Assembly (NCBI GenBank): GCA_044892505.1
Contig: CM097884.1
Coordinates: 99,758,001-99,822,000 of the forward strand
DNA: 64,000 nt
Reading direction: 5' to 3'
Source of the DNA: Schmidtea nova
Lineage: Eukaryota
Shown here piece by piece: positions 22,229 through 50,529 of the stretch. The notes below the pieces were generated by a model. The model saw only the letters and a program-made list of their open reading frames with translations. It ran no database searches and was not told the DNA's origin. Each line of letters starts with the position of its first letter. Positions within the stretch are counted from its first letter, which is position 1. The position numbers and the translations under genes were made by a program.

Positions 22229-23529
22229 TGTGGTGCGTTCAATAAGTACCCGACCTGACGAAGAAAACGAATTCCAAAATGGGCCATTTTTATAACACAA
22301 CAAGCTTAACGTATGTAGGCATCATTTTTCAACATAATGTCCATTTCGCTCCACACACTTCCGCCAACGAATAATCAACTCAGAAAACGCATTTTTGAAG
22401 AAATCTCGGGGACATGCATTGAAGAAATCTTCCACGGCAACCTTCAAATCGTCTTTGGATCCAAACTGGGTGCTTCTCAAATGCTTCTTTAGTTGTCTAA
22501 AGAGGTAAAAATCGCTTGGTGCCAAATCTGGGCTGTACGGCGGATGATCCACAAGCACTAGTCCAGCACCTTCAATTGTGGCCCGAGAAACGCCCGCTGT
22601 GTGCACTGGCGCATTGTCGTGGAGAAACCATAGTGGCGTATTCTTCTGCTTCCGTCTATTCTTTCTGGCGGTTGCCACTAGTTGGCTGTAATAGGCAGCG
22701 TTGATGGTGATGCCTTTATCCACGAAATCAATGAGAATAACACCTTTATGATCCCAGAATATGGAAAGCATCATCGCTCGCCCATGACTTGTCCCCGTTC
22801 GCATCTTCAAAGATGGCTTCTCTCCAGGAAGTTTCCACTCTGCTGACTCACGCTTTGTTTCCGGCAAATACATACTGAGTGGGGTTTCATCCTCCGTTAT
22901 TAAATTTGCCAGGAAAGTCTCACCATGTTGGTCCCACAGGTTCAAGTTGTTCTGACTGCACTCCAAGCGGTTTCGCATCATTTCACCAGTCAAGAAGCGG
23001 GGTACGAATCTGGAGCACAGTTTTCTGATACCCATGTATTTCAATTTGGCGTGGGCTGTACCAACACTGATGTTGAGCTTCGTTGACAGCATTTTCATGG
23101 TGATTCGACGCTCTTCTTGTACAAACTTCTCCAATTTTTCATCAACTGTGTCAAAAATTTCTTGTGGCCGACCTGATTTTTCTTGATCAAAAACGGAGGT
23201 GCGACCACCTTTAAGCTCTCTGACCCGATATTTAACAGTTGTCAGAGATGGGGAGTCATTTAGGTAAGTTGACTGCAAAAGATCGTAGATTTCACTGCAC
23301 GTCTTCTTTTGCAACACAAAGAACTTGATAACGCTGCGATACTCAACGTCTGAAATCATTACACCGACGAAAATTCAAAATGTCACAATAAAAATTTTAA
23401 TGCGTTTGATAAAATAAAACAATAACTGAAATCAAAACCTATATTTATTTATTTATTTACACAAAAAAAACTAAAATTTGTCATTACATTTCTTTTACCT
23501 TTGGTCGGGTACTTATTGAACGCACCACG
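22229..23529 (-). mobile_element. mariner element, full length (1301 bp), apparently intact
   Basis: TIRs (C/T)GTGGTGCGTTCAATAAGTACCCGACC with TA TSDs (22227-22228, 23530-23531). Confidence 0.97.
22322..23359 (-). CDS. mariner DD34D transposase, 345 aa, uninterrupted
   Basis: N-terminal HTH region. Catalytic TEDET, HDNAPVH and YSPDLAPSD, with 34 residues counted between D2 and D3. Confidence 0.97.
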   Translation of the reverse strand: MISDVEYRSVIKFFVLQKKTCSEIYDLLQSTYLNDSPSLTTVKYRVRELKGGRTSVFDQEKSGRPQEIFDTVDEKLEKFVQEERRITMKMLSTKLNISVGTAHAKLKYMGIRKLCSRFVPRFLTGEMMRNRLECSQNNLNLWDQHGETFLANLITEDETPLSMYLPETKRESAEWKLPGEKPSLKMRTGTSHGRAMMLSIFWDHKGVILIDFVDKGITINAAYYSQLVATARKNRRKQKNTPLWFLHDNAPVHTAGVSRATIEGAGLVLVDHPPYSPDLAPSDFYLFRQLKKHLRSTQFGSKDDLKVAVEDFFNACPRDFFKNAFSELIIRWRKCVERNGHYVEK

Positions 23530-29410: not shown

Positions 29411-30131
29411 TGAATACTTTATTTTTTACATTCTTTTCATATTAAAATAAATTTAATTGCTTCTTTTAAAATTAAATTAATTAATTTCACAATAGTTAAG
29501 TTCAAAAATTACACTTTAGCTTCTTCCCTAATGAAAATCAAAGATCCCAATTTTTGGTAAAACATTTTGAATATAAAATAATTTGAGTAAAATAATATTT
29601 AAAATTAATTGTACCTCCTGCGTAATGCTAATGTTGTAAGGAAACTAACTGTGACGTCCATGGAAGGTATTACGTTGGTAACGAAATCGAGTTATGCGAT
29701 GCTGCGTATTCAGTATTTAATCGTATTAAATGGGTTACATGTGCGGATTATGTAATACTATGTGTTAGTTATGTGATATGATTATGTAGAAAACCGTTTC
29801 AACCCCTTCATCTGGTTATGTATTCTGAATATGCAATTCATACACTAACATATGATAATTCATTATTTATCCAACTTACCAAATAACTTATATAACTGTT
29901 ATAATATGCTAGATATTAAAGTCTTATTATAATTAAACATTACTATTGATTTGAATGTTTGTCTAATAGTCATGGTAACTAAATTTAGGAAATCATATGA
30001 TTTCAAATTTAATTTAATTAATAAAGCATATGAAATAATTAAAGATATGTTTAAAAATTACTTTCGTGCATGTTCTTAATATTATTAGTAATAATTAATA
30101 GGAAATAAACTTATTATGAAAATAAACTCAC

Positions 30132-30893
30132 AGTATCCCAACTAATTTGAATAATTGGTCTGTTAACGTGAAACACATCTCCAACAAAATCCCCAATGAT
30201 TTCTGGTATCAGATTTCTCATTCCCCTGCCACAATTAACAACTCTCAAACCCCTGTTGAAGACAATGTTAAACGGAAAAACTTCGAAAAATAATTCTGAA
30301 GGGATTGACATGTTGTCACCCTCATTTTTAAAGCACTGATTGTCAAATTTTAATCTCAGAATACAGTTAAACACTTTATTCGGCATTTTGTTTTCGCCAA
30401 TTATTTCAATTTCAATTGTCGTATTGTAAAATGTTTTTGCGATTTCAAAGATCTGCCCCCGAACGTAATGGACAAATCCGGCTCTCTGTGTTCGATATTG
30501 CAAAGTGATTCCAGTTCGACTTTCATTTACGCAAAAAAATGACGGTGGCTTCAGTTTTGGATAACTGAATCGTAGATATTCATGCAAATTGTCGAGACCG
30601 TTGAGGAAATCTCGAAGATCTCTTCCAAGCACTCGAAGAATCGAGTCATACCCGTAATGAGATAAAAATAAAATGAAATACTTTCCATTTTGAAACATTA
30701 ACTCGTCTTTTGTGATTCGACAAAAATCGGCTGCGGTGAAGACAATTTTTTTCAACAGTTCTTCATCGTAGACATCGTGGATGGCAAACACGTTGACGTC
30801 GAGTTTGGATTTTTCGAGGATTTGAGTCCAGGCCTGCAAACCGTACGTAGAACAAATAAACTGTCGAATGCCTTCTAACAATAGACCGTACAT
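30132..30893 (-). CDS. Gyc88E-like: First coding exon (254 codons) of an atypical soluble guanylate cyclase: H-NOX domain plus start of PAS/HNOBA
   Basis: MYGLLLE start, YGYDSILRVLGRDLRDFLNGLDNLHEYLRFSYP, YxTxR heme motif. Phase-0 donor GTGAGT after WDT at 30131. Downstream exons were not found in the window. Confidence 0.93.
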
Positions 30894-31725
30894 GGGTAAA
30901 TAGAATTTGTTTTCTCTCGAAAGACTCTAAACTAACTTTCATTATAGAGTTGAAATATTTATCAGTATTTTCATAAATCATCCAATCCGAAATCCAAATA
31001 TCCGCTCTATATCGAAATTAGATTTATTACGAAAAATAATTTTTTTCCTTTTTATTGGTTAATTTCATTTGTGAAAAGTAGATCTTTTGTCACGTTTTTT
31101 TTTCCCCTAAAAATAATCAAATTGCCATTATCGGTGAAATTATTGATAATTAGTTGTTTTAATCAATCACTTTGCTCGTTAATCAACCGAATGGATTTTT
31201 ATTTATTTTTCCGTCAACAAATTTTTCTTTTAATAATATTAGCAGTCTACTTAAATATGTAAATTTTCAGAATAATTTTGGACATTAATATTTTAGAAAT
31301 GAATTTATTATGAAAAAAATAATTCTAATTACAGCGGACGCCCGCACGACGCACGGCATATCAGACATGAGTTATCAAACAAATTTTAGCAAGTTTAAAC
31401 ATTAAATTTACCGCCCTATCGAATGCGCTAATGCAATTATTCTATTTATTTTATTTTACGCAACTTTTTTTTTTAATACTGTTGGAGTTTTTAAATGATT
31501 TAGGGGGATATTTGCAGTTTTGACTCCTGTATTGTTTATAAGAATAAATAATACAAACCCGAATAATTAAATAATTTATTAATCAACTATTGTAGAGTTT
31601 TTATAATAACGCAACGATTTTCGGACACCAAAAAAAAATTATTTCACTAAGCTTACGTGGTAAATGACAATTTGTTCCTCTATCAGTTCCTTTTAATAAA
31701 AACAATCCATATCATTCATTGTTGG

Positions 31726-33693: not shown

Positions 33694-34211
33694 TTACAGA
33701 ATGTTTTTTTCATTACAGAGATCATTATTTTCATCTTCACTTTTTATCAAATTCTCAATCTCAATGGACTCGTCCACTTCTTCAAACATTAATTCATTTC
33801 CCATATCATCATCCTCATTCCCTACATCAGATATATCGTCCTGCCAAATAACATCGTCTTCTGATCCATCCATAGCATTACTCAAACAACATTTCTTGAA
33901 TCCTTTGATAATAATTGCCTCACTAACTGCATCCCATGATAATTGAATCCATTTGCAAATAGTTTCTAAATCAACCTTTCTTCTGTTTCCAGAAGCAGTA
34001 AATGATGGAGCTCCAGAAAAAAACCACTCAATCCATCTCTTTCGCATCTCTTGTTTAAATGGCCTATTGCAAACTACATCCATAACTTGGAGTTGCCCGG
34101 TCATCCCTCCAGGAATAATCACAAGATCTGTTTTGTTTTTTGCCAAAATTTCCTTTACGCATGGCATACGGTGGCATCTAAATGCGTCTAATACCAGTAA
34201 CCTCCTTGAAT
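33694..34211 (-). CDS. pogo transposase, C-terminal half (D2 and D3)
   Basis: NSRRLLVLDAFRCH...PGGMTGQLQVMDVVCNRPFK. Joins the N-terminal half in frame after removal of the insertion and one TSD copy (814+518=1332 nt, 443 aa). Confidence 0.95.
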
Positions 34212-34217
34212 TTCGAA

Positions 34218-34435
34218 AGTAGGTAGATGTGTGGAGCCGGGAACAAAGACAATATGACTCATGCGTGGGCGGAAAAAAGAAGAACAAAGACCCCCCCGGG
34301 GGGGGTAGAAAAATTTTTTTTTGATGAGTCATCGATGACTCATCGATGACTCATCATTTTTATGACTCATCGATGACTCATCATTTTTATGACTCATCGA
34401 TGACTCATCATTTTTATGACTCATCGATGACTCAT
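34218..34435 (+). repeat. Left TIR with ATGA(C/G)TCAT array
   Basis: Inverted match to 45150-45339. Ten ATGA(C/G)TCAT palindromes and a C7G8 hairpin. Confidence 0.95.
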
Positions 34436-34479
34436 TTCAAATTCAAATTTTAAATTTGAATTTCCAAACGTTAAATAAG

Positions 34480-35090
34480 GTCAAACCTTCAAACAAGGGT
34501 ATCATTCGAAAGGTCTTGGAGAGGTCTATACAATGGTCATAACCTCGAAGGTTTATGGAGGGTCTTTAACCTTCAAAGGGTGCAAAACCTTCAACCTTTT
34601 TCAATCCTTATGATATATATATCATTCTAAAGGTATTTAAGAGGTAGATATGTTGGTCATACCTTCGAAGGTTTATGGAGGGTCTTTAACCTTCAAAGGG
34701 TGCAAAACCTTTGAACCTTTTTCAATCCTTATAATATATATATCATTCGAAAGGTATTTAAGAGGTAGGTATGTTGGTCATACCTTCGAAGGTTTATGGA
34801 GGGTCTTTAACCTTCAAAGGGTGCAAAACCTTCAACTTTTTTCAAACCTTATAATATATATATATCATTCGAAAGGTATTTGAGAGGTAGGTATGTTGGT
34901 CATACCCTTGAAGGTCTATGGTGGGTGCTCAACCTTCAAAGGGTGCAAAACCTTCAACTTTTTTCAAACCTTATAATATATATATCATTCGAAAGGTATT
35001 TGAGAGGTAGGTATGCTGGTCATACCCTCGAAGGTCTATGGTGGGTGCTCAACCTTCAAAGGGTGCAAAACCTTCAACCTTTTTCAAACC

Positions 35091-35169
<79 letters not shown>

Positions 35170-35752
35170 TTCGAAAGGTATTTGAGAGGTAGGTATGCTG
35201 GTCATACCCTCGAAGGTCTATGGCGGGTGCTCAACCTTCAAAGGGCGCAAAACCTTCAACCTTTTTCAAACCTTATAATATATGTATCATTCGAAAGGTA
35301 TTTGAGAAGTAGGTATGCTGGTCATACCCTCGAAGGTCTATGGTAGGTGCTCAACCTTCAAAGGGTCCAAAACATTCAACGTTTTTTAAACCTTGTGTGT
35401 AATATATCAAACAAAAGGTAACTGAGATGTGCACACAATGGTCATACCCTCGAAGGTTTATGGTGGGTACTCAACCTTCAAAGGGTGCAAAACCTTCAAA
35501 AAATTTTAAACATTACAAGTTATATATCAAACAAAGGGTAATTGAGATGTGCACACAATGGTCATACCCTCGAAGGTTTATGGTGGGTGCTCAACATTCA
35601 AAGGGTGCAAAACCTTCAAAAAATTTTAAACATTACAAGTTATATATCAAACAAAGGGTAATTGAGATGTGCACACAATGGTCATACCCTCGAAGGTCTA
35701 TGGTGGGTGCTAAACCTTCAAGGGGTCAAAAACCTTCAAATCTTTTCAAACC

Positions 35753-35801
<49 letters not shown>

Positions 35802-36000
35802 AACAAAAGGTAATTGAGAGTTGAGTATGATGGTCAACCCTCGAAGGGTCCAAGGTTCAAAATTTTTAAAACTATGTAATATATGTATCAAACAAAAGGT
35901 AATTGATAAATGAGTTTAATGGACATACCATTGAAGGTGGGTGGTCGACCCTCGAAGGGTCCAAGGTTCAAAATATTTAAAACTATGTAATATATGTATC
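34480..36000 (+). repeat. About 120-bp tandem array (about 12 diverging copies with variable (TA)n)
   Basis: Unit TCGAAAGGTATTTGAGAGGTAGGTATGCTGGTCATACCCTCGAAGGTCTATGG...AACCTTCAAAGGGTGCAAAACCTTCAA. Present on the left side only. Confidence 0.9.
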
Positions 36001-36012
36001 AAACAAAAGGTA

Positions 36013-39000
36013 ACACTTTGCAACACATGTGCAACATTTACAAAGACATTGCAATCCACATGCAACGTAAACAAAGACATTTCTTTGCCAAATTTCATAA
36101 TAAAGACATTTCATTGAAAAATTTCATAACAAAGACACTTCAATGCCAAAAAACTAAACAAAGACATTTCATTGCAAAATTTCATAACAAAGACATTTCA
36201 ATGCCAAATTTCATAACAAAGACACAACAATGCCAAATTTCATAACAAAGACATTTCAATGCCAAAAAACTAAACAAAGACATTTCATTGCAAAATTTCA
36301 TAACAAAGACATTTCAATGCCAAAAAACTAAACAAAGACATTTCATTGCAAAATTTCATAACAAAGACATTTCAATGCCAAATTTCATAACAAAGACTTT
36401 TCAATGCCAAAAAAAATTAAACAAAGACATTTCATTGAAAAATTTCATAACAAAGACATTTCATTGCCAAAAACTAAACAAAGACATTTCATTGCCAAAA
36501 ACTAAACAAAGACATTTCATTGCCAAATTTCATAACAAAGACATTTCATTGCCAAATTTCATAACAAAGACATTTCAATGCCAAAAAAAAAAACTAAACA
36601 AAGACATTTCATTAGCAAATTTCATAACAAAGACATTTCATTGCAAAATTTCATAACAAAGACAATTCATTGCAAAATTTCATAACAAAGACATTTCATT
36701 GCAAAATTTCATAACAAAGACATTTCATTGCAAAATTTCATAACAAAGACATTTCATTGCAAAATTTCATAACAAAGACATTTCAATGCCAAATTTCATA
36801 ACAAAGACATTTAAATGCCAAAAAACTAAACAAAGACATTTCATTGCAAAATTTCATAACAAAGACAATTCATTACCAAAAAACTAAACAAAGACATTTC
36901 ATTGCCAAATTTCATAACAAAGACATTTCATTGCCAAATTTCATAACAAAGACATTTCATTGCCAAATTTCATAACAAAGACATTTCATTGCAAAACACC
37001 TAAACAAAGACATATCAATACCAAAATAACTAAACAGAGACACGAACATTTACTAGCAGAACATTTACTATCAGAACATCTTTTGTGATGGTTTTTATCT
37101 GCCAAAGCTTATTACTCGAACATTAATTACAATTCAACTTCATTCAGCATCATTTGATAAAACAAAGACATATCATTGTCAAAACACCTTAACAAAGACA
37201 TTACAGTACCCATGCATTGTAAGCAACATACTAACAAAGACATTACAGTACCCATGCAGTGTAAGCAACATGCTAACAAAGACATTGCAATACAGATGCA
37301 AGTTAACAAAGACATTGCAATACAGATGCAAGTTAACAAAGACATTGCAATACAGATGCAAGTTAACAAAGACATTGCAATACATATGCAAGTTAACAAA
37401 GACATTGCAATACATATACAAGTTAACAAAGACATTGCAATGTAGATACTAGTTAACAAATNNNNNNNNNNNNNNNNNNNNNNNNNNNNNNNNNNNNNNN
37501 NNNNNNNNNNNNNNNNNNNNNNNNNNNNNNNNNNNNNNNNNNNNNNNNNNNNNNNNNNNNNNNNNNNNNNNNNNNNNNNNNNNNNNNNNNNNNNNNNNNN
37601 NNNNNNNNNNNNNNNNNNNNNNNNNNNNNNNNNNNNNNNNNNNNNNNNNNNNNNNNNNNNNNNNNNNNNNNNNNNNNNNNNNNNNNNNNNNNNNNNNNNN
37701 NNNNNNNNNNNNNNNNNNNNNNNNNNNNNNNNNNNNNNNNNNNNNNNNNNNNNNNNNNNNNNNNNNNNNNNNNNNNNNNNNNNGGATTCAAAATTTTTTA
37801 AACAAATACATTGTAATGTCAAAACATCTTAACAAAGATATTGCAATACAGATACTGGTTAACAAAGACACACATGCAAGTTTTTAAACAAAGACATTGT
37901 AATGCCAAAACAATACATATGCAAGTTAACAAAGACATTGCAATACAGATGCAAGTTAACAAAGACATTGCAATACAGATGCAAGTTAACAAAGACATTG
38001 CAATACATATACAAGTTTACAAAGACATACATGCAAGTTAATAAAAAATATTCAAAAATATTCAAGGGTTCAAAATTTTTTAAAACTATATAAATATCAT
38101 GCGAAAGATATTTGAGATGTGTGTGTGTATATTTTCAAATCTTCAAGATGTCAAAATAATTAAACTACCACATCGTAATATATATATTAATTTTCCTACC
38201 CATTTTGACGCTGCAATTCATGTGCAATATTAACAAAGACATTGCAAAACAGATGCAAGTTAACAAAGACATTGCAGTTGCAAGCCAAGTTAACAAAGAC
38301 AACATGTCAAAAAAGACTAATTATTATTAATCACAAAGTGCATTCTCTTAGCCAATGATAAAAATAAATTAAATGAAAATACATATATTTTGTATGACAT
38401 TATATGTATATCACATGATATTCATCAATATTAATACCACAAGATTCACACTTATCAATATTGTTCAAACATTTTGAACAAATAATGACATGTCCACAAG
38501 GTAAATATAAAATACCAACTCTATTTATATTACATATTGAACATGTGAGAAATCTTTGTTTGATTTCTTCCAATTTCTTGGTTACATTTACCTCTAAAAT
38601 ATCCACATTCAGCATGAAAGTTCGAATAATAGTACGATATTTTCCAAGTCGAAATTCCATACATGACCAGAAAATGGTATTCAAATTGAATTCAGTAGAA
38701 TCGATATCATTAAGAATCATAATGAAACTGGACAATTTCATCATGGATTTATCATATCCGAATGATTCTGTTAAACCAATAATTAATTTATTATTGAAGG
38801 ATTTGAATAATTTTGAAAGAATGTCGATATCGCATTTCTCAATCGAAGTTAAAAGGTCATCAAGTATTAAAAATGATTGGATCCAATTGTCCAAAGTAAT
38901 GAAATTATCTGTAACCTATTTTAAAATAATTAATTTAAATATATATTTTTCAAACTAACTTTATTTGTTTCTTTATTCATTTTCGTCAATCAATACTATT

Positions 39001-39229
39001 TACAAGTTGTATTTATATTGCAAAAATCAACCAATTTAATAACCAACCATTTTATTAACCAACCAATTATTGAAAGTTTTGCTAAACTGCTACATTAAAA
39101 TGATGATAAGGGACATTGAAAATTAGGTAACAATATATTTATTATTAGAAATATGTTCAAGTAATGAGCTTTTGCACATAAAAACCATCACAGAATAGGT
39201 TCTGCTACTAGGGTTCTGCTCGCAATGTT
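36013..39229 (-). repeat. Left arm of internal inverted repeat (about 3.2 kb)
   Basis: Reverse complement of 41410-44712, apart from scattered SNPs and repeat-number differences. Contains AACAAAGAC arrays with 29-30-bp units and the RING gene. Confidence 0.9.
38400..38980 (-). CDS. IAP/Mdm2-type C-terminal RING protein (about 178 aa, one predicted 44-nt intron), copy 1
   Basis: CSICNINRVGILYLPCGHVIICSKCLNNIDKCESC at the extreme C-terminus. ATG at 38980, mirror of copy 2. Confidence 0.8.
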
Positions 39230-41409
39230 CTGCTCGCAATGTTCTGCTACTAAATGTTATGTCACTATGACAAATACATGAAAAATTATCATACTATTGA
39301 GATAATCACACAAATTATTCTTAAATTATAATACAAATATATCAAAAATATATGAAATATACATTACATACTTGAAATATTATCACAAAGTATCATTACA
39401 TACATGAAATATCTACATATTTGCTCAATTACATAGAAAATCATCAAAGTTACACACAAAATATGAAAAGTATATAGAAATTCGTCACATACAAAAACAT
39501 CGTATATATGAAATATTATCAAAGATACATAGAAATTTATCACACACGTACAAAATATCACCATACTATAGTGTATAACTATACATACAAAATATCAGAA
39601 ATACAAACATACATAAAATTTCATCTTACTATAGTTTGATAACATAGAAATACTTGAAATATTCACAAAATAAAGAAACTAACAAAGATATATAGAGTCA
39701 TCACACATGCAAAATATCACATATAAGAAATATCATTACAGATTATCACATGCATGAAATATTATTATTATTATAGTACAAATTACATAGAAAATAGTAA
39801 AGATACATGAAATATCATCAAAGAAAATACACACAGAATTATAGGAAATTTTCACACACTAGAAATACATACAATAATAATGATCATTAAAAGAATATTA
39901 TCACGCCAGTACAAAGTTTTACACAGAATATTATCATATTGAACAAAAGCTTATCATATATATGAAATATTATTATACTTTTATGTAAACTACAAAGAAA
40001 AATACAAACATATACACAAAATATTATCACATTATAGTGTCTAAACAATAGAAATACTCACAAAATATATAAATTTTGATCATAAAATATCAAAGATTCA
40101 CAAAGAAAATATATAAAAGATTATCATATTTTTGATTGATAACATGAAAGTACATTGAAATAGATAGAAATATTATTAAAATACATACAAGTATCAATAC
40201 ATACATGAAATATCTTACACAAAATGTTATAACATGCATGAAATATCTACATACAAAATATCAAAAGTACATAGAAATAAATCCTATACACAAAATATCA
40301 AAAGTACATAGAAATAAATCCTATACACAAAGGATATCATTACATATATAAAATATCATCATAAAATATCTTTACATACATGAAATATCATCATACTTTA
40401 ATGCAAATACAGACAAAATATTATCATGATATATTCCAAATACACTTAATAATTAAAAGAATATCATACATACACAAAGGATATCATTCACATGAAAAGT
40501 TGTCATGTTATAGTCAGTCAAAAGCATGAATTATTATCATCCTAGTGTAAAATACATATATATATATATAATATCAAATAATGTATCATACATACAAAGG
40601 ATATCATTACAAAGTATCATTACATACATTAAATATCATCACACTATAGTACAATTATATAGATAATCATCAAAAAATATACAGAAATTAAATCAAATTC
40701 ACAACAATATTCATTAAAGAAATATCTACATACTTGTGCAATTACATAATAAATATCAAAATTATATGAAATATCATCACATATGACATATTATCATACA
40801 TACACAAAGGATATAATATCACATACTTAGAAAATTATTATCACATACAAAATATCAAAAGTTCATTACATATGCAAAATATAATTACATATATCATTAT
40901 ACTATAATTTAACAGTAATAAATGTTTAACTAATGAGCTTTTGCACATAAAAACCATCACAAAAGATGTTCTGCTACTAGGGTTCTGTTCGCAATGTTCT
41001 GCTAGCAATGTTCTGCTACTGAATAAATTTGATGAAAATGTAACAATGTATTATGAATGGAAATAAATGCATGAAATATCGTCATACTATAGTGGAAATA
41101 TTAACAAATTGATATTAGATGCATCATATATTATCTTACTATAGTTTGATAACATAGAAAAAATATATATATAGAAATCATCAAAATTATACAAAATATT
41201 AAAAAAGATCATATTAAATATCATCACAAAGTACATAGAAAATCATAAAAATACACAGAAATTCATCAAATTCACAACAATAATCATTAAAGAAATATCT
41301 ACATACTAGTGTCATTACATAAAAAATATCTGAAAATATCTGATATATCATCACAAATATCAACACATATATGAAATATTATCACATACAAAAGTTCATT
41401 ACACATACA

Positions 41410-44400
41410 AACATTGCGAGCAGAACCCTAGTAGCAGAACCTATTCTGTGATGGTTTTTATGTGCAAAAGCTCATTACTTGAACATATTTCTAATAATAA
41501 ATATATTGTTACCTAATTTTCAATGTCCCTTATCATCATTTTAATGTAGCAGTTTAGCAAAACTTTCAATAATTGGTTGGTTAATAAAATGGTTGATTAT
41601 TAAATTGGTTGATTTTTGCAATATAAATACAACTTGTAAATAGTATTGATTGACGAAAATGAATAAAGAAACAAATAAAGTTAGTTTGAAAAATATATAT
41701 TTAAATTAATTATTTTAAAATAGGTTACAGATAATTTCATTACTTTGGACAATTGGATCCAATCATTTTTAATACTTGATGACCTTTTAACTTCGATTGA
41801 GAAATGCGATATCGACATTCTTTCAAAATTATTCAAATCCTTCAATAATAAATTAATTATTGGTTTAACAGAATCATTCGGATATGATAAATCCATGATG
41901 AAATTATCCAGTTTCATTATGATTTTTAATGATATCGATTCTACTGAATTCAATTTGAATACCATTTTCTGGTCATGTATGGAATTTCGACTTGGAAAAT
42001 ATCGTACTATTATTCGAACTTTCATGCTGAATGTGGATATTTTAGAGGTAAATGTAACCAAGAAATTGGAAGAAATCAAACAAAGATTTCTCACATGTTC
42101 AATATGTAATATAAATAGAGTTGGTATTTTATATTTACCTTGTGGACATGTCATTATTTGTTCAAAATGTTTAAACAATATTGATAAGTGTGAATCTTGT
42201 GGTATTAATATTGATGAATATCATGTGATATACATATAATGTCATACAAAATATATGTATTTTCATTTAATTTATTTTTATCATTGGCTAAGAGAATGCA
42301 CTTTGTGATTAATAATAATTAGTCTTTTTTGACATGTTGTCTTTGTTAACTTGGCTTGCAACTGCAATGTCTTTGTTAACTTGCATCTGTTTTGCAATGT
42401 CTTTGTTAATATTGCACATGAATTGCAGCGTCAAAATGGGTAGGAAAATTAATATATATATTACGTTGTGGTAGTTTAATTATTTTGACATCTTGAAGAT
42501 TTGAAAATATACACACACACATCTCAAATATCTTTCGCATGATATTTATATAGTTTTAAAAAATTTTGAACCCTTGAATATTTTTGAATATTTTTGAATA
42601 TTTTTTATTAACTTGCATGTATGTCTTTGTAAACTTGTATATGTATTGCAATGTCTTTGTTAACTTGCATCTGTATTGCAATGTCTTTGTTAACTTGCAT
42701 CTGTATTGCAATGTCTTTGTTAACTTGCATATGTATTGTTTTGGCATTACAATGTCTTTGTTTAAAAACTTGCATGTGTGTCTTTGTTAACCAGTATCTG
42801 TATTGCAATATCTTTGTTAAGATGTTTTGACATTACAATGTATTTGTTTAAAAAATTTTGAATCCNNNNNNNNNNNNNNNNNNNNNNNNNNNNNNNNNNN
42901 NNNNNNNNNNNNNNNNNNNNNNNNNNNNNNNNNNNNNNNNNNNNNNNNNNNNNNNNNNNNNNNNNNNNNNNNNNNNNNNNNNNNNNNNNNNNNNNNNNNN
43001 NNNNNNNNNNNNNNNNNNNNNNNNNNNNNNNNNNNNNNNNNNNNNNNNNNNNNNNNNNNNNNNNNNNNNNNNNNNNNNNNNNNNNNNNNNNNNNNNNNNN
43101 NNNNNNNNNNNNNNNNNNNNNNNNNNNNNNNNNNNNNNNNNNNNNNNNATTTGTTAACTAGTATCTACATTGCAATGTCTTTGTTAACTTGTATATGTAT
43201 TGCAATGTCTTTGTTAACTTGCATATGTATTGCAATGTCTTTGTTAACTTGCATCTGTATTGCAATGTCTTTGTTAGCATGTTGCTTACACTGCATGGGT
43301 ACTGTAATGTCTTTGTTAGTATGTTGCTTACAATGCATGGGTACTGTAATGTCTTTGTTAAGGTGTTTTGACAATGATATGTCTTTGTTTTATCAAATGA
43401 TGCTGAATGAAGTTGAATTGTAATTAATGTTCGAGTAATAAGCTTTGGCAGATAAAAACCATCACAAAAGATGTTCTGATAGTAAATGTTCTGCTAGTAA
43501 ATGTTCTTGTCTCTGTTTAGTTATTTTGGTATTGATATGTCTTTGTTTAGGTGTTTTGCAATGAAATGTCTTTGTTATGAAATTTGGCAATGAAATGTCT
43601 TTGTTATGAAATTTGGCAATGAAATGTCTTTGTTATGAAATTTGGCAATGAAATGTCTTTGTTTAGTTTTTTGGTAATGAATTGTCTTTGTTATGAAATT
43701 TTGCAATGAAATGTCTTTGTTTAGTTTTTTGGCATTTAAATGTCTTTGTTATGAAATTTGGCATTGAAATGTCTTTGTTATGAAATTTTGCAATGAAATG
43801 TCTTTGTTATGAAATTTTGCAATGAAATGTCTTTGTTATGAAATTTTGTAATGAAATGTCTTTGTTATGAAATTTGGCAATGAAATGTCTTTGTTTAGTT
43901 TTTGGCAATGAATTGTCTTTGTTATGAAATTTTGCAATGAAATGTCTTTGTTATGAAATTTGCTAATGAAATGTCTTTGTTTAGTTTTTTTTGGCATTGA
44001 AATGTCTTTGTTATGAAATTTGGCAATGAAATGTCTTTGTTATGAAATTTGGCAATGAAATGTCTTTGTTATGAAATTTTTCAATGAAATGTCTTTGTTT
44101 AGTTTTTTTTTGGCATTGAAATGTCTTTGTTATGAAATTTGGCATTGAAAAGTCTTTGTTATGAAATTTGGCATTGAAATGTCTTTGTTATGAAATTTGG
44201 CAATGAAATGTCTTTGTTATGAAATTTGGCAATGAAATGTCTTTGTTATGAAATTTTTCAATGAAATGTCTTTGTTTAGTTTTTTTTTGGCATTGAAATG
44301 TCTTTGTTATGAAATTTGGCATTGAAAAGTCTTTGTTATGAAATTTGGCATTGAAATGTCTTTGTTATGAAATTTTGCAATGAAATGTCTTTGTTTAGTT

Positions 44401-44712
44401 TTTTGGCATTGAAATGTCTTTGTTATGAAATTTTGCAATGAAATGTCTTTGTTTAGTTTTTTGGCATTGAAATGTCTTTGTTATGAAATTTGGCATTGTT
44501 GTGTCTTTGTTATGAAATTTGGCATCGAAATGTCTTTGTTATGAAATTTTCCAATGAAATGTCTTTGTTTAGTTTTTTTGGCATTGAAGTGTCTTTGTTA
44601 TGAAATTTTTCAATGAAATGTCTTTATTATGAAATTTGGCAAAGAAATGTCTTTGTTTACGTTGCATGTGGATTACAATGTCTTTGTTCATGTTGCACGC
44701 GTGTTGCAAAGT
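41410..44712 (+). repeat. Right arm of internal inverted repeat (about 3.3 kb)
   Basis: Mirror of 36013-39229. The arms are separated by a 2.2-kb AT-rich spacer (39230-41409). Confidence 0.9.
41659..42239 (+). CDS. IAP/Mdm2-type C-terminal RING protein (about 178 aa), copy 2
   Basis: ATG 41659, exon 1 MNKETNK, intron GTTAGT...AATAG (41680-41723), exon 2 in frame with ORF 41745..42239. TATAAATA at 41622-41629 and ATTGG boxes upstream. Confidence 0.8.
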
Positions 44713-45149
44713 CCTTGCACGTGTGTTGCAATGTCTTTGTTAACTTGCACGCATGTTGCAAAGTCTTTGTTTAGTTTGAAAGATAATAATAATAATTAAA
44801 TAACAACATTAGTAGCAGAACATTTAGTATCAGAACCCTGGAAGCAGAACATTGCGAGCAGAACCCTGGAAGCAGAACCTCTTCTGTGATGGTTTTGAAG
44901 TGCAAAAGCTTCATACTTGACAAATAATTAATTAAACATGCACACATATAAAAATGTCTTTGTTTAGTTTGCACACCTGTTGTAAATATTTTTGATGACT
45001 CTAATTTTGTCTTATAAAAAAAATTGACTAAAAGAAATTGGTGTTATAAAAAAAAAATTTGGGTTAAAAAATTTGTGTTAAAAAATTTGTGTTAAAAAAA
45101 AATTTCTAAAAAAATAATTTGGCGCGAAAAAAATTTTTGAAAAAAAAAA

Positions 45150-45339
45150 TATGACTCATCGATGACTCATCAAAAAAAAAGTATGACTCATCGATGACTC
45201 ATCGATGACTCATCGATGACTCATCGGTGACTCATCAAAAAAAATTCTACCCCCCCGGGGGGAGGGGGTCTTTGTTCTTTTTTTCCGCCCACGCATGAGT
45301 CATAATGTCTTTGTTCCCGGCTCCACACATCTACCTACT
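45150..45339 (-). repeat. Right TIR with ATGA(C/G)TCAT array
   Basis: About 130 bp nearly identical (inverted) to the left end, with about 8 TGA(C/G)TCA sites. Confidence 0.95.
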
Positions 45340-46153
45340 TTCGAAATTCATCTTTTCTATCATTACACCAAATAGTCTTAATCCAATCCTTAGTCAACTC
45401 CTCATTCATCCATCCATTTTCTTGTGCTTTAACAATCATACCAGCTGGCCAATGAATGTTCTTTGGTAAAAATTTTCTTTTAAAAATTACATAAGGCGGC
45501 ATCTTCTTTCCGTCACCATAAGCTCCCAACATAACTGTAAACCGATTCTTTTCGTTGCCTGTAGTTTTAATAGGTACGGACTTGACTCCTTTGAAATCCA
45601 ATGTCTGAAATGAAGGTATATCAAAACTTAGTGGAGTCTGATCCCCATTTGCTATGCAACTAATTGGATATTCATGCCTTTTCCTTAAATTTATTATATA
45701 TTTCTGATAGTCGAGCAGCTTATTTTCTACATCATCCGGCAGTCGCTGTGCAATCGAAGTCCTTCTTCTTATAGAAATATCATTCCTTTTCATGAAGAGC
45801 TGGCACCAGCGCGCCGAGGCTTTAAATATTGAACCAGGATACATCTCCTTGACTAACTCTAAAGCCTTCAATCTAACTTCTACAGTGGATATTGAGGAAC
45901 CTGAAAATCGCCTTTCATGAACATATTCAACTAATTTTTTCTCCACGTCAGGAAAAAATAATTTTCTCCCTCTGCCAGGGGCCTTTGTAGAGGATCTGCA
46001 CTCTTTTAAAGTATTTTTATTTTTTCTCCAATGCCTTACATTAGCTTCACTGAGTCCATATTCTCTAGATGCTCCTCTATTTCCGATACGTTCGGCTGCT
46101 TCAATTACCTTCAATTTGAAACCTGTCGTATAACTGCAGCGTTTTGAAGACAT
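45340..46153 (-). CDS. pogo transposase, N-terminal half (Brinker DBD, CENP-B HTH, first catalytic D)
   Basis: YTTGFKLKVIEAA, FKASARWCQLFMKRNDISIRRRT, ANGDQTPL. Ends at the TSD (KDEFR). Confidence 0.95.
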
Positions 46154-48084
46154 TATAGGGAAATAAAAATTTGAATTTAAGTAACTGAAATTTTAATTTT
46201 AAACAAAAAATAAATTTAATAATAAATTTAATGTAATACTTATATTAAGGTAATAATTATACATGCGTCTTATATTTGGGTTACTTATATTTTCTTGAAT
46301 TCAGTCAATTTTTAATGATGCGTCTTATATTGGATGCGTCTTATATTCGGATAATTACGGTAATTAAAATTAATTAATCGCTCAATGGGAAACCCGAGGC
46401 AATGGGAAACCCGAGCGCAGTAGATACCCGAGAGATCAAAGTCGGGAGATTGCGCAAGGCAATTAAGGAAAAGCCACTCGAGCGCAATCACAATAATTTG
46501 TTATTAAAACAATTAAGCCGAGATTGGGTATAAAAGGCAGCGCAAAGCAGAGGACGAGCCGACGAGCTGAGAGTTAAAAACAGAAAGTATTAAAAATTAC
46601 TTAAAACAAAGAAAGAGAAAGATCTTGAGAAATTCAAAAGAGATAAAGTGAGGAAAATATTTTATAACTAGAGAATCAAATCCGAATATGGAAGAGAGCG
46701 CAAATTGGTCAGGAGTGTACGTAACAGAAGTTGTAATTTGTGGTGATCGTTAAATAAATTGTTCTATGATGGGTTCATTGATTTCGATAATTAAAGAACA
46801 CGAGGAGTCAGGTCAGTAAACCGATCCTAAACAGAATAATAACCCAACAGTGCTTATCTAAGAAATTTTAGAATTTTTTCCTTCATTTTCCGTTTATAAT
46901 AAATTTGAATGGTAGTTTATTTAAATATTACTACTGGCTGATCTTGGTGATAAATAACGCACCGAAGGCACTCATAGTGACCTACATTCATAATGTATAT
47001 ATTATAGCTACGAACTTTAAAGTGTTGTAGTGAAACTGCCACGCTAATTTATTGATTTTTTATTAATAATATTATATTGGTATTCGTTTTTAAAAATACA
47101 TTTTCGGGAAATGGATTCTGATGGCTTTACTCCTTAATTTAGATAAATTCATAGTTTGGCTTGGTTAATTCAACTGTCTGGGAATTATTCTCTTCCACCA
47201 TCATTTCTTCTCAGGTGGGTCTCTCACTACAGGCGTACACTTTAATTTACTGACTTGCTAAGCTCCATTTCCCAAGCTGATTTGTTAGATCAGTTTTATT
47301 TTATGTCGCGCTTTCTCGGGAAGTCTTAAACTTCGGTAATTTTGTTAACCGATCAGAGGAAAGGTTTAGTATAATAATGATATTGGGGGCAGCTCAGTTG
47401 AACTTCACTCCAAAGCACGTATCTTATATAATAAAGTATCTTATATAATACTGGTTGAACATCAGCCTAATACTTAGATACAAATTATGGATAATTCTCT
47501 CATTATCGGTCTTGAATTTATGTTGGCTCCTAAATTGGGGTTACTTCATTAATTAGGCTCATGAAACGAGCTGAAAAGATGACTCAGAAAGCTTTTCTTA
47601 ATGGGTAGTTGTGATTATGTACTATTGATTTAAACACTTTCTCCGTTACTACACAGGGTTGCCCTCACATTCCGCTCGGTAGGACCTATTTACTATGGGG
47701 TTACCCATTTCTTCAGGGAAATTGTTTGCCAGCCTCAGTCGCTCATTATAAATTCTTCTATTGACCACAAAAAACTATCATGCCAATGTATTGGCTTTCG
47801 AATCATCTTTGAATTGGGTCAAATGTCGTTGAATTTAATTTTTGAATAAAGACCTTGCATGTGATTGATTTGAATCACTATCGAAATCTTAACATAAAAA
47901 GTCAAAGGATCTAAAACATTTAATCAACAATAAAAATGTATACCGTACAATAGAATTGTCTAGGACAAACTGGCTACATCAATGAACAAAAATGGTCACC
48001 GGTCAGAGCATAACCAACTGCGGTCGAAAATAAATGGTGAACACTTACCTAAAGTTACGTGCATAAAGATTCTGTGAAGTAAAT

Positions 48085-50469: not shown

Positions 50470-50529
50470 AGTAGTAGGATGTGAGCGCATCAGATATAGG
50501 TCAAGACCCCCCCCTAGAAAAAATTTTTT

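Follow-up and report, generated by a model that had tools for sequence, protein, structure and literature searches.

A multicopy family of palindromic, Polinton-ended elements carrying a RING gene in Schmidtea nova

Palindromic elements with Polinton ends

The window analyzed here is a stretch of 64,000 nt of the Schmidtea nova genome (assembly GCA_044892505.1, 1.25 Gb; contig CM097884.1, positions 99,758,001-99,822,000, forward strand), and coordinates refer to it unless another contig is named. It contains an element of 11,122 bp (34218-45339), the focal copy, which belongs to a large family of palindromes. We consider it very probable that these multicopy palindromes, which share the ends of Polintons and carry a RING gene under selection, are copied and integrated in trans by the polymerase and integrase of a helper Polinton. 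The first-pass annotation of this stretch had proposed a helper-dependent palindrome with Polinton ends. Our results support this proposal, as there are many copies with different 6-bp duplications, an autonomous Polinton shares the terminal repeat and the arms are homogenized within copies. Neither of the two outcomes that the annotation had named as refuting it was borne out.

The focal copy is flanked by the target-site duplication TTCGAA (34212-34217 on the left and 45340-45345 on the right). Its terminal repeats, about 200 bp long and 85% identical, both start with AGTAGGTAG (at 34218 and 45339). The hexamer and the AGTAG start of the repeats had been reported before, and both were confirmed. 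The ends are of the AG...CT type found in the helper, with AGTAGGTAG as a variant of the published (AGT)2 motif (PMC8097293). The insertion splits a pogo/Tigger transposase (DDE_1, HTH_Tnp_Tc5) on the minus strand; according to ORFs and Pfam domain matches, its 3' part (DDE_1) lies at 33694-34217 and its 5' part (BrkDBD, HTH_Tnp_Tc5, DDE_1) at 45340-46192. Three other pogo copies (3/3 loci) have a single TTCGAA at the insertion site, with flanks 99.2-99.9% identical. Therefore, the duplication is real, although its site lies within a palindrome, and the insertion is recent. The interrupted pogo transposon is young.

Copy number and architecture of the family

A 20-mer from the RING exon, which is present in each arm, has 4,084 exact matches in the genome, and its reversed control has none. 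Among the first 100 matches listed, 74 form 37 outward-facing inverted pairs, spaced by a median of 8.2 kb, while 26 are unpaired. We estimate the family at 1,500-2,500 elements, roughly 2,000, which at about 15 kb each would amount, by our estimate, to some 2-3% of the genome. Two sets of copies were compared. The selected set has 26 copies taken from search lists, or 27 with the focal copy. The positional set is composed of 20 consecutive pairs on contig C1 less than 12 kb apart, one pair already sampled and one 22-kb pair being skipped. Both termini were detected in 14 of the 20 positional copies, 13 of these 14 with a perfect 6-bp duplication and a size of 11.0-19.3 kb (median 15.9 kb). 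In the selected set the duplication is perfect in 22/27 copies, focal copy included. A search for further copies bearing these termini and different 6-bp duplications, which had been suggested as a check, was run and found them: all 35 hexamers collected (13 positional and 22 selected) differ from each other.

A typical copy measures about 16 kb and is a near-complete palindrome, consisting of one end plus its mirror image. The focal copy follows this layout in part, and the earlier view that its architecture is that of the family was wrong. The arms pair over most of their length, and 15 of the 24 regions analyzed have a loop of 659-772 bp. As claimed before, Polinton mobility genes are absent: tblastn with 12 helper proteins gave no match in any of ten satellites (the focal copy and nine sisters), whether to the protein-primed family B polymerase, the integrase, the capsid or the packaging ATPase. 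The protease was outside these 12 queries, and no protease ORF was seen in the ORF list of the focal element. The claim that genes are missing altogether had overlooked the RING gene in each arm and a second gene in the loop of sister copies. Satellites were found inside Polinton genes in 7 of 35 cases, versus 5 of 48 for other termini and a background of 8.7% in the 80 kb sampled.

Some loci depart from this layout. At L204 (2191-8912), the polymerase gene of another Polinton is interrupted by a one-armed satellite of 6.7 kb that has its two termini and a near-perfect duplication. Five RING copies in the same orientation lie near the end of contig C2 (C2:455080088-455718051); the two that were fetched share context, suggesting a segmental tandem array. 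Inverted copies of the flank extend beyond the termini at L089 (2.5 kb), L037/L038 with L150 (at least 10 kb), L242 and L051-L055, and L051 is a duplication-inversion that ends in the outer duplication CACTCG. These inverted flanks may have arisen by genuine rearrangement or by errors of assembly. As candidates for full-length parents, RING pairs 24-28 kb apart were considered and rejected: of the four fetched, three contain a nested Polinton that has termini of its own, and the other is a duplication-inversion.

Arm homogenization and selection

Within a copy of the positional set, the two arms diverge by a median of 0.10% both in the RING exon and in the 1 kb upstream of it, far below the 1.7% and 4.4% found between copies, and the nearest relative of an arm is its own partner in 16 of the 20 copies. 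This supports the earlier suggestion that the arms are homogenized. Lesions are shared in the same way. L236 has the same 11-bp deletion in both arms, L232 and L240 have stops in both arms, and one 10-bp deletion occurs in both arms of two separate elements. Private differences between arms nevertheless persist in several copies, including the focal one. Its arms had been said to differ by a few SNPs, which proved incorrect: the inner 1.45 kb has 5 mismatches and one 10-nt gap, and the outer 1.5 kb has 13 mismatches together with 8 gaps, of which several span whole repeat units (28-120 nt). Gaps at mirrored positions had also been pointed out as a hint of artefact. They are uninformative, as 25 sister arms have an AAT/AAC-rich simple repeat at the place matching the focal N runs.

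The RING gene is under purifying selection. Over 40 arms, the ratio of non-synonymous to synonymous polymorphism (pN/pS) is 0.33 (p 8e-5; 24 synonymous and 33 non-synonymous variants), while the other five frames over the same region give 0.64-3.33. In 23 arms chosen by a non-coding query the ratio is 0.37. A first value of 0.10 was set aside as biased because the copies had been chosen by protein similarity.

The RING gene and its product

The main exon of the RING gene is an open frame of 171 codons in the left arm (38400-38915, minus strand) and is repeated in the right arm (41724-42239, plus strand), facing outward in each. A first exon of 7 codons is predicted at 38960-38980 (minus strand), the mirror of 41659-41679 (plus strand), followed by a predicted 44-nt intron in phase 0, with the GT donor at 41680 and the AG acceptor at 41722-41723 in the right arm. 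This two-exon structure is a prediction from sequence. All 40 arms retain the acceptor AG, and of the 36 arms covered at the donor, 34 retain its GT.

The main exon encodes a helical N-terminal domain and an IAP-type C3HC4 RING (PF13920, E 3e-9) with a dimerization helix and a hydrophobic tail. The structure model has a pLDDT of 84.8, and its closest solved relatives by sequence and fold are the RING domains of cIAP2, XIAP, cIAP1, BIRC7 and IDOL. We predict that the protein acts as an E3 ubiquitin ligase in the form of a dimer. No BIR domain was matched in the 171-residue exon in a Pfam-type search, and the predicted first exon adds 7 residues. Fold searches with the whole model gave no clear match for the N-terminal domain, with weak helical matches over residues 1-117; an IAP-type UBA domain is a possible candidate for this part. 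A HMMER search found 8 related proteins at E < 1e-10, and full-length relatives elsewhere are unnamed proteins with 31-49% identity. No relatives were found by the word-indexed protein search or in the viral contigs searched. Metagenome contigs yielded two short related loci without usable context, and Atlas searches returned generic RING matches.

The RING protein likely helps in cis on average. It is not strictly needed in cis, because copies broken in both arms have integrated. No RNA run containing the RING region was found in the sequencing-run listing. Contigs of three runs of one study cover 30 of 30 bins of 38040-39900 and those of a fourth run 15 of 30. Among the joints listed for these contigs, none falls at the predicted intron, and the runs, which may include the source of the assembly, were not counted as support.

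There is a 24-bp promoter-like module upstream of the gene in each arm (39169-39192, minus strand; 41447-41470, plus strand), on the right 212 bp before the predicted start codon. It is related to a module of the helper: in 7 of 13 cases, helper gene o145 is preceded, at a distance of 155-206 bp, by a close variant. One full satellite has 16 matches to the core of the module. From this position and similarity, the module may be read as a helper-type promoter of the RING gene.

The loop gene

In sister copies the loop carries a second predicted gene of about 86 codons in two exons, with a coiled-coil-like end. Besides the 44-nt intron of the RING gene, an intron of 51 nt is predicted. The loop gene is under selection. 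In the 18 of 27 selected copies in which it is covered there are no stops, start and splice sites are kept, and the insertions within exons measure 6 nt (six copies), 18 nt (one) and 25 nt (one). Its pN/pS is 0.45 over these 18 copies (p 0.002), and the other frames give 0.71-2.38. The frame is kept even in variants whose DNA is up to about 20% different. The gene is present in 15 of the 20 positional copies and absent from the focal copy. A 20-mer from it has 770 exact matches, 377 forward and 393 reverse, from which flip-flop inversion cannot be read in a symmetric element. Its exons had no match in a Pfam search, and an Atlas search gave a weak bZIP-like lead for the second exon.

Helper Polintons and shared ends

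When 10 matches to the terminal repeat were followed inward, 8 led to autonomous Polintons, here family A, and 2 to satellites. Seven of the eight family-A elements have both termini and measure 17.6-19.9 kb, six of them with a perfect duplication. The terminal 103 bp of the focal element is 93-98% identical to those of the seven full-length elements. Family A has ORFs for a protein-primed polymerase (pPolB, PF03175, E 1.7e-21), an intron-split integrase, an ATPase, capsid proteins and a TBP-like protein. The domains rve, Pox_A32, DJR and Peptidase_C5 were scored on a related Polinton of the window, whose core is 85% identical to family A. A 20-mer of the family-A polymerase has 1,150 exact matches in the genome, compared with 4,084 for the RING 20-mer, and therefore the satellite likely outnumbers this helper. 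Shared ends, duplications and exchange of ends point to mobilization in trans by helper enzymes. The genome is unusually rich in Polintons, with many different termini in the loci sampled. In 80 kb sampled at even spacing, Polinton coding sequence makes up about 9% (4 of 20 stretches, L252-L271).

The focal copy

The focal copy is a centre-deleted, end-swapped hybrid and is atypical of its family. From the left, it is composed of a terminal inverted repeat common to family A (34218-34435, plus strand), a 120-bp subterminal array (34461-36012, plus strand), and the outer part of the left arm (36013-39229, plus strand), which includes a 29-bp array (36070-37017), 30-42-bp arrays and the RING gene. 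The one-sided 120-bp array described earlier does exist (34500-35767); its one-sidedness is a peculiarity of this copy, as many sisters have the array at both ends. Likewise, the arms that had been placed at 36013-39229 and 41410-44712 around a spacer of 2,180 bp are present, while the large spacer results from a central deletion found once. This segment (39230-41409, plus strand) is inner left arm left unpaired by the deletion, for which sisters have the mirror image and the loop gene. The junction (41409/41410) has a 2-bp microhomology, occurs once in the genome and marks the loss of about 5-6 kb relative to sister L091. The right arm (41410-44687, minus strand) is an inverted copy of the left arm.

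The right end (44688-45339, minus strand), including the terminal inverted repeat at 45140-45339, is of the helper type: its nearest non-self relatives with known loci, 19 of 19, are ends of family A. The crossover between satellite arm and helper-type end falls in a common 12-bp repeat word (44676-44687). Both ends share one duplication, and therefore the swap either preceded insertion or came about later by conversion. Among the 14 positional copies with both termini, one, L238, has similarly mixed ends.

Two motifs are dense in the focal copy. TGA(C/G)TCA has 20 matches at 34218-34440 and 16 at 45120-45339 (0.05 in shuffles), and AACAAAG has 50 matches in the 36013-38330 region (0.7 in shuffles). 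We take the former to resemble AP-1 sites and the latter TCF/Sox sites. Such motifs may recruit host factors.

Origin, mechanism and alternative explanations

The helper itself yields fold-back derivatives, which likely show the route by which the palindromes arose. One of them (C3:137668101-137680106) is 12.0 kb long, carries one and the same end of 4.04 kb at left and right (99.4% identical), has a perfect duplication, and is without polymerase and major capsid genes. Its geometry is that of copy-back and snap-back defective genomes (PMC13506859, PMC8235507). Ends indicate two more family-A derivatives of this kind (L172/L173 and L179/L189), of about 15.5 and 11.7 kb. These two are 2 of the 4 end pairs seen and have intact duplications. 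No parent with a RING gene was found in the 10 of 26 unpaired RING matches examined, which are degraded, interrupted or half elements, two of them with a second arm. Therefore, origin by end replacement is argued by analogy, and a lost or unsampled RING-bearing parent is possible.

A mechanism can be proposed on these grounds. The protein-primed polymerase of the helper would start at either end and displace a strand, which would fold back through its own inverted repeats. Repair or template switching would then copy one half onto the other, first making a palindrome by end replacement and afterwards keeping the arms alike at each round. Satellite and helper would exchange ends through crossovers in common AACAAAGAC-type repeats, the RING protein would be made from the helper-type promoter, and the product would be integrated by the enzyme of the helper, leaving a 6-bp duplication. 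Size hints at packaging in the capsids of the helper, the median of 15.9 kb (13 copies) against 17.6-19.9 kb for the helper being no more than suggestive. It is also possible, though somewhat less likely than not, that the family is a true satellite virus of an endogenous Polinton. It would have a self-mirroring genome kept near capsid size, would outnumber its helper, trade ends with it during extrachromosomal replication and use helper-type promoters, and its RING protein, in double dose, and loop protein would keep infected cells alive or turn helper proteins to its own use.

Other explanations account for part of the data. It is rather doubtful, though worth serious weight, that the family consists of defective fold-back derivatives of an extinct or unsampled autonomous Polinton that had the RING and loop genes, with the signature of selection inherited from that parent. 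The helper does yield such derivatives, the layout of the arms, with a small outward gene behind a promoter-like module, resembles the accessory end of the helper, and broken RING copies have integrated. Furthermore, only 10 of the 26 unpaired matches were examined, and one of the loci, L194, adjoins a truncated polymerase without a terminus. However, loop-gene variants up to about 20% different keep their frame and synonymous variants are common to many palindromic copies, an indication that selection acted while palindromic forms of the family were diversifying, and tblastn found no RING match inside autonomous Polintons (loci L001-L140 and the window). We regard as unlikely the view that Polinton-type mobilization occurs but that the arms are kept alike by chromosomal gene conversion or cruciform repair after insertion rather than by extrachromosomal replication. 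Long inverted repeats recombine readily, and the inverted flank duplications beyond the terminus at L089, L242, L051 and A037 represent rearrangement at repeats. Against this, one lesion is found in both arms of two separate insertions, which must therefore have been symmetric before spreading, and private arm differences persist in several copies, as in the focal one. Fold-back artefacts of library amplification or assembly could be suspected, given the inverted flanks at some loci and copies known from the assembly rather than raw long reads. They are nevertheless a most improbable source of the palindromes, which have distinct direct 6-bp duplications and are bordered on either side by unrelated flanks; the empty pogo site is an exact junction of the two flanks of the insertion, and the focal copy has arms that differ in SNPs and repeat number and ends of different type. 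The long, repeat-rich inverted arms also recall Foldback elements, which have arms of this kind. Yet it is hardly credible that a DDE transposase moves the element as a transposon of the Foldback or another cut-and-paste type, with Polinton-like ends due to chance or capture: the terminal 103 bp matches the autonomous Polinton at 93-98%, the duplication is of 6 bp, as for that Polinton, and ends have been exchanged with it.

Several points weigh against our preferred reading, that of helper-mobilized palindromes with Polinton ends. Of the positional copies, 6 of 20 are without a detectable terminus at one or both ends, in 1 of 14 an inverted flank stands in place of the duplication, and the size range is clipped by the 20-kb sequence fetches and the 12-kb spacing limit. 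Several satellite end types are without a helper of the same terminal sequence in the loci sampled, and the failure to find a RING-bearing parent counts here as well. In 4 of the 20 copies an arm elsewhere is closer than the own partner; three of these exceptions have a rearranged or mosaic upstream part. The identity of the arms could also stem from gene conversion after insertion and partly from assembly polishing across near-identical arms. Finally, extrachromosomal, hairpin and packaged forms, as well as expression, are presumptive.

Replication and particle formation of Polintons have so far been argued mostly from gene content. The satellites, with re-synchronized halves, ends swapped with the helper and a size close to it, may preserve in the genome the trace of a folded-back, single-stranded intermediate and of extrachromosomal replication in common with the helper. 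Cargo genes under selection would turn the satellite into an entity with a biology of its own rather than debris. In addition, some 2,000 copies would be a large genomic source of inverted repeats, and inverted flank duplications adjoin several of them.

Other features of the window

The window contains a separate Polinton of 18.2 kb, which starts at 50470, runs to the end of the window (64000) and continues to C3:99826655. It has different termini and the duplication TGCACC. Its genes encode a TBP-like protein, an ATPase, a split integrase with a chromodomain, capsid proteins, a protease and a polymerase-like ORF of 1,343 codons. Its subterminal repeats are AAGTAGGTCA arrays, presumably a nuclear-receptor-like motif. 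There are also a soluble guanylate-cyclase-type exon (HNOB, HNOBA; 30114-30926, minus strand) and an intact-looking mariner-type transposase ORF (22322-23374, minus strand).

Comparison with known systems

The satellites resemble autonomous Polinton/Maverick elements in the 6-bp duplication, the AG-starting termini, the size near 17 kb and the terminal repeat of the resident family. They differ in lacking polymerase, integrase, ATPase and capsid genes within the set tested, in inverted repeats of 5-9 kb and in a copy number of about 2,000. Terminal repeats of known Polintons measure 100-1,500 bp (PMC10748475), and vertebrate Polintons have repeats of 46-1,447 bp, a size of about 17 kb and an average of 22 copies, at most about 287 (PMC8097293). 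Surveys that require polymerase and integrase (PMC10748475, PMC8097293) cannot see satellite elements. No published description of whole-element palindromic Polinton satellites was found in a search that had subscription journals, Repbase and supplements outside its range.

Non-autonomous Polintons were reportedly described by Kapitonov and Jurka in 2006 as helper-dependent, internally deleted derivatives with Polinton ends and the 6-bp duplication. The satellites share the ends, the duplication and, most probably, the dependence on a helper. Unlike the elements so described, they are palindromic over their whole length and carry two selected genes unrelated to the tested genes of the helper. 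In the anole, non-autonomous Polintons were not seen (PMC3014272). Derivation from the present helper genome was not found for the satellites: only termini, repeats and the promoter-like module are common, and the cargo genes gave no match to the helper proteins tested.

The RING protein is similar to the RING E3 ligases of the IAP family (cIAP2, XIAP, BIRC7, IDOL) and to viral IAP-like proteins without BIR in its C3HC4 RING, the preceding helix and the hydrophobic tail. Unlike IAP proteins, it shows no BIR domain, and its N-terminal helical domain is without a clear fold match. Burro/GYPSM1 giant LTR retrotransposons carry apoptosis and ubiquitin cargo (PMC6431247). They are, like the satellite, mobile elements with IAP-related domains, and they differ in being autonomous retroelements that are not palindromic. 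In S. nova, an LTR element (L145, L144, L143, L141; C3:137654335-137687179) with 3.09-kb direct repeats, a protease and ankyrin repeats has a second IAP-type RING gene, whose product is 27% identical to that of the satellite over 100 residues, and is present in at least 150 copies. It also carries an ORF resembling the Polinton accessory gene o205. Retroelements and Polintons may share cargo, to judge from these similarities.

In layout there is a parallel with snap-back and copy-back defective viral genomes, including the snapback satellites of AAV, which likewise consist of an end plus its mirror image and depend on a helper (PMC13506859, PMC8235507). While those genomes are short-lived pieces of the parent virus, the satellite family of S. 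nova is integrated and inherited, has branched into subfamilies and retains genes of its own.

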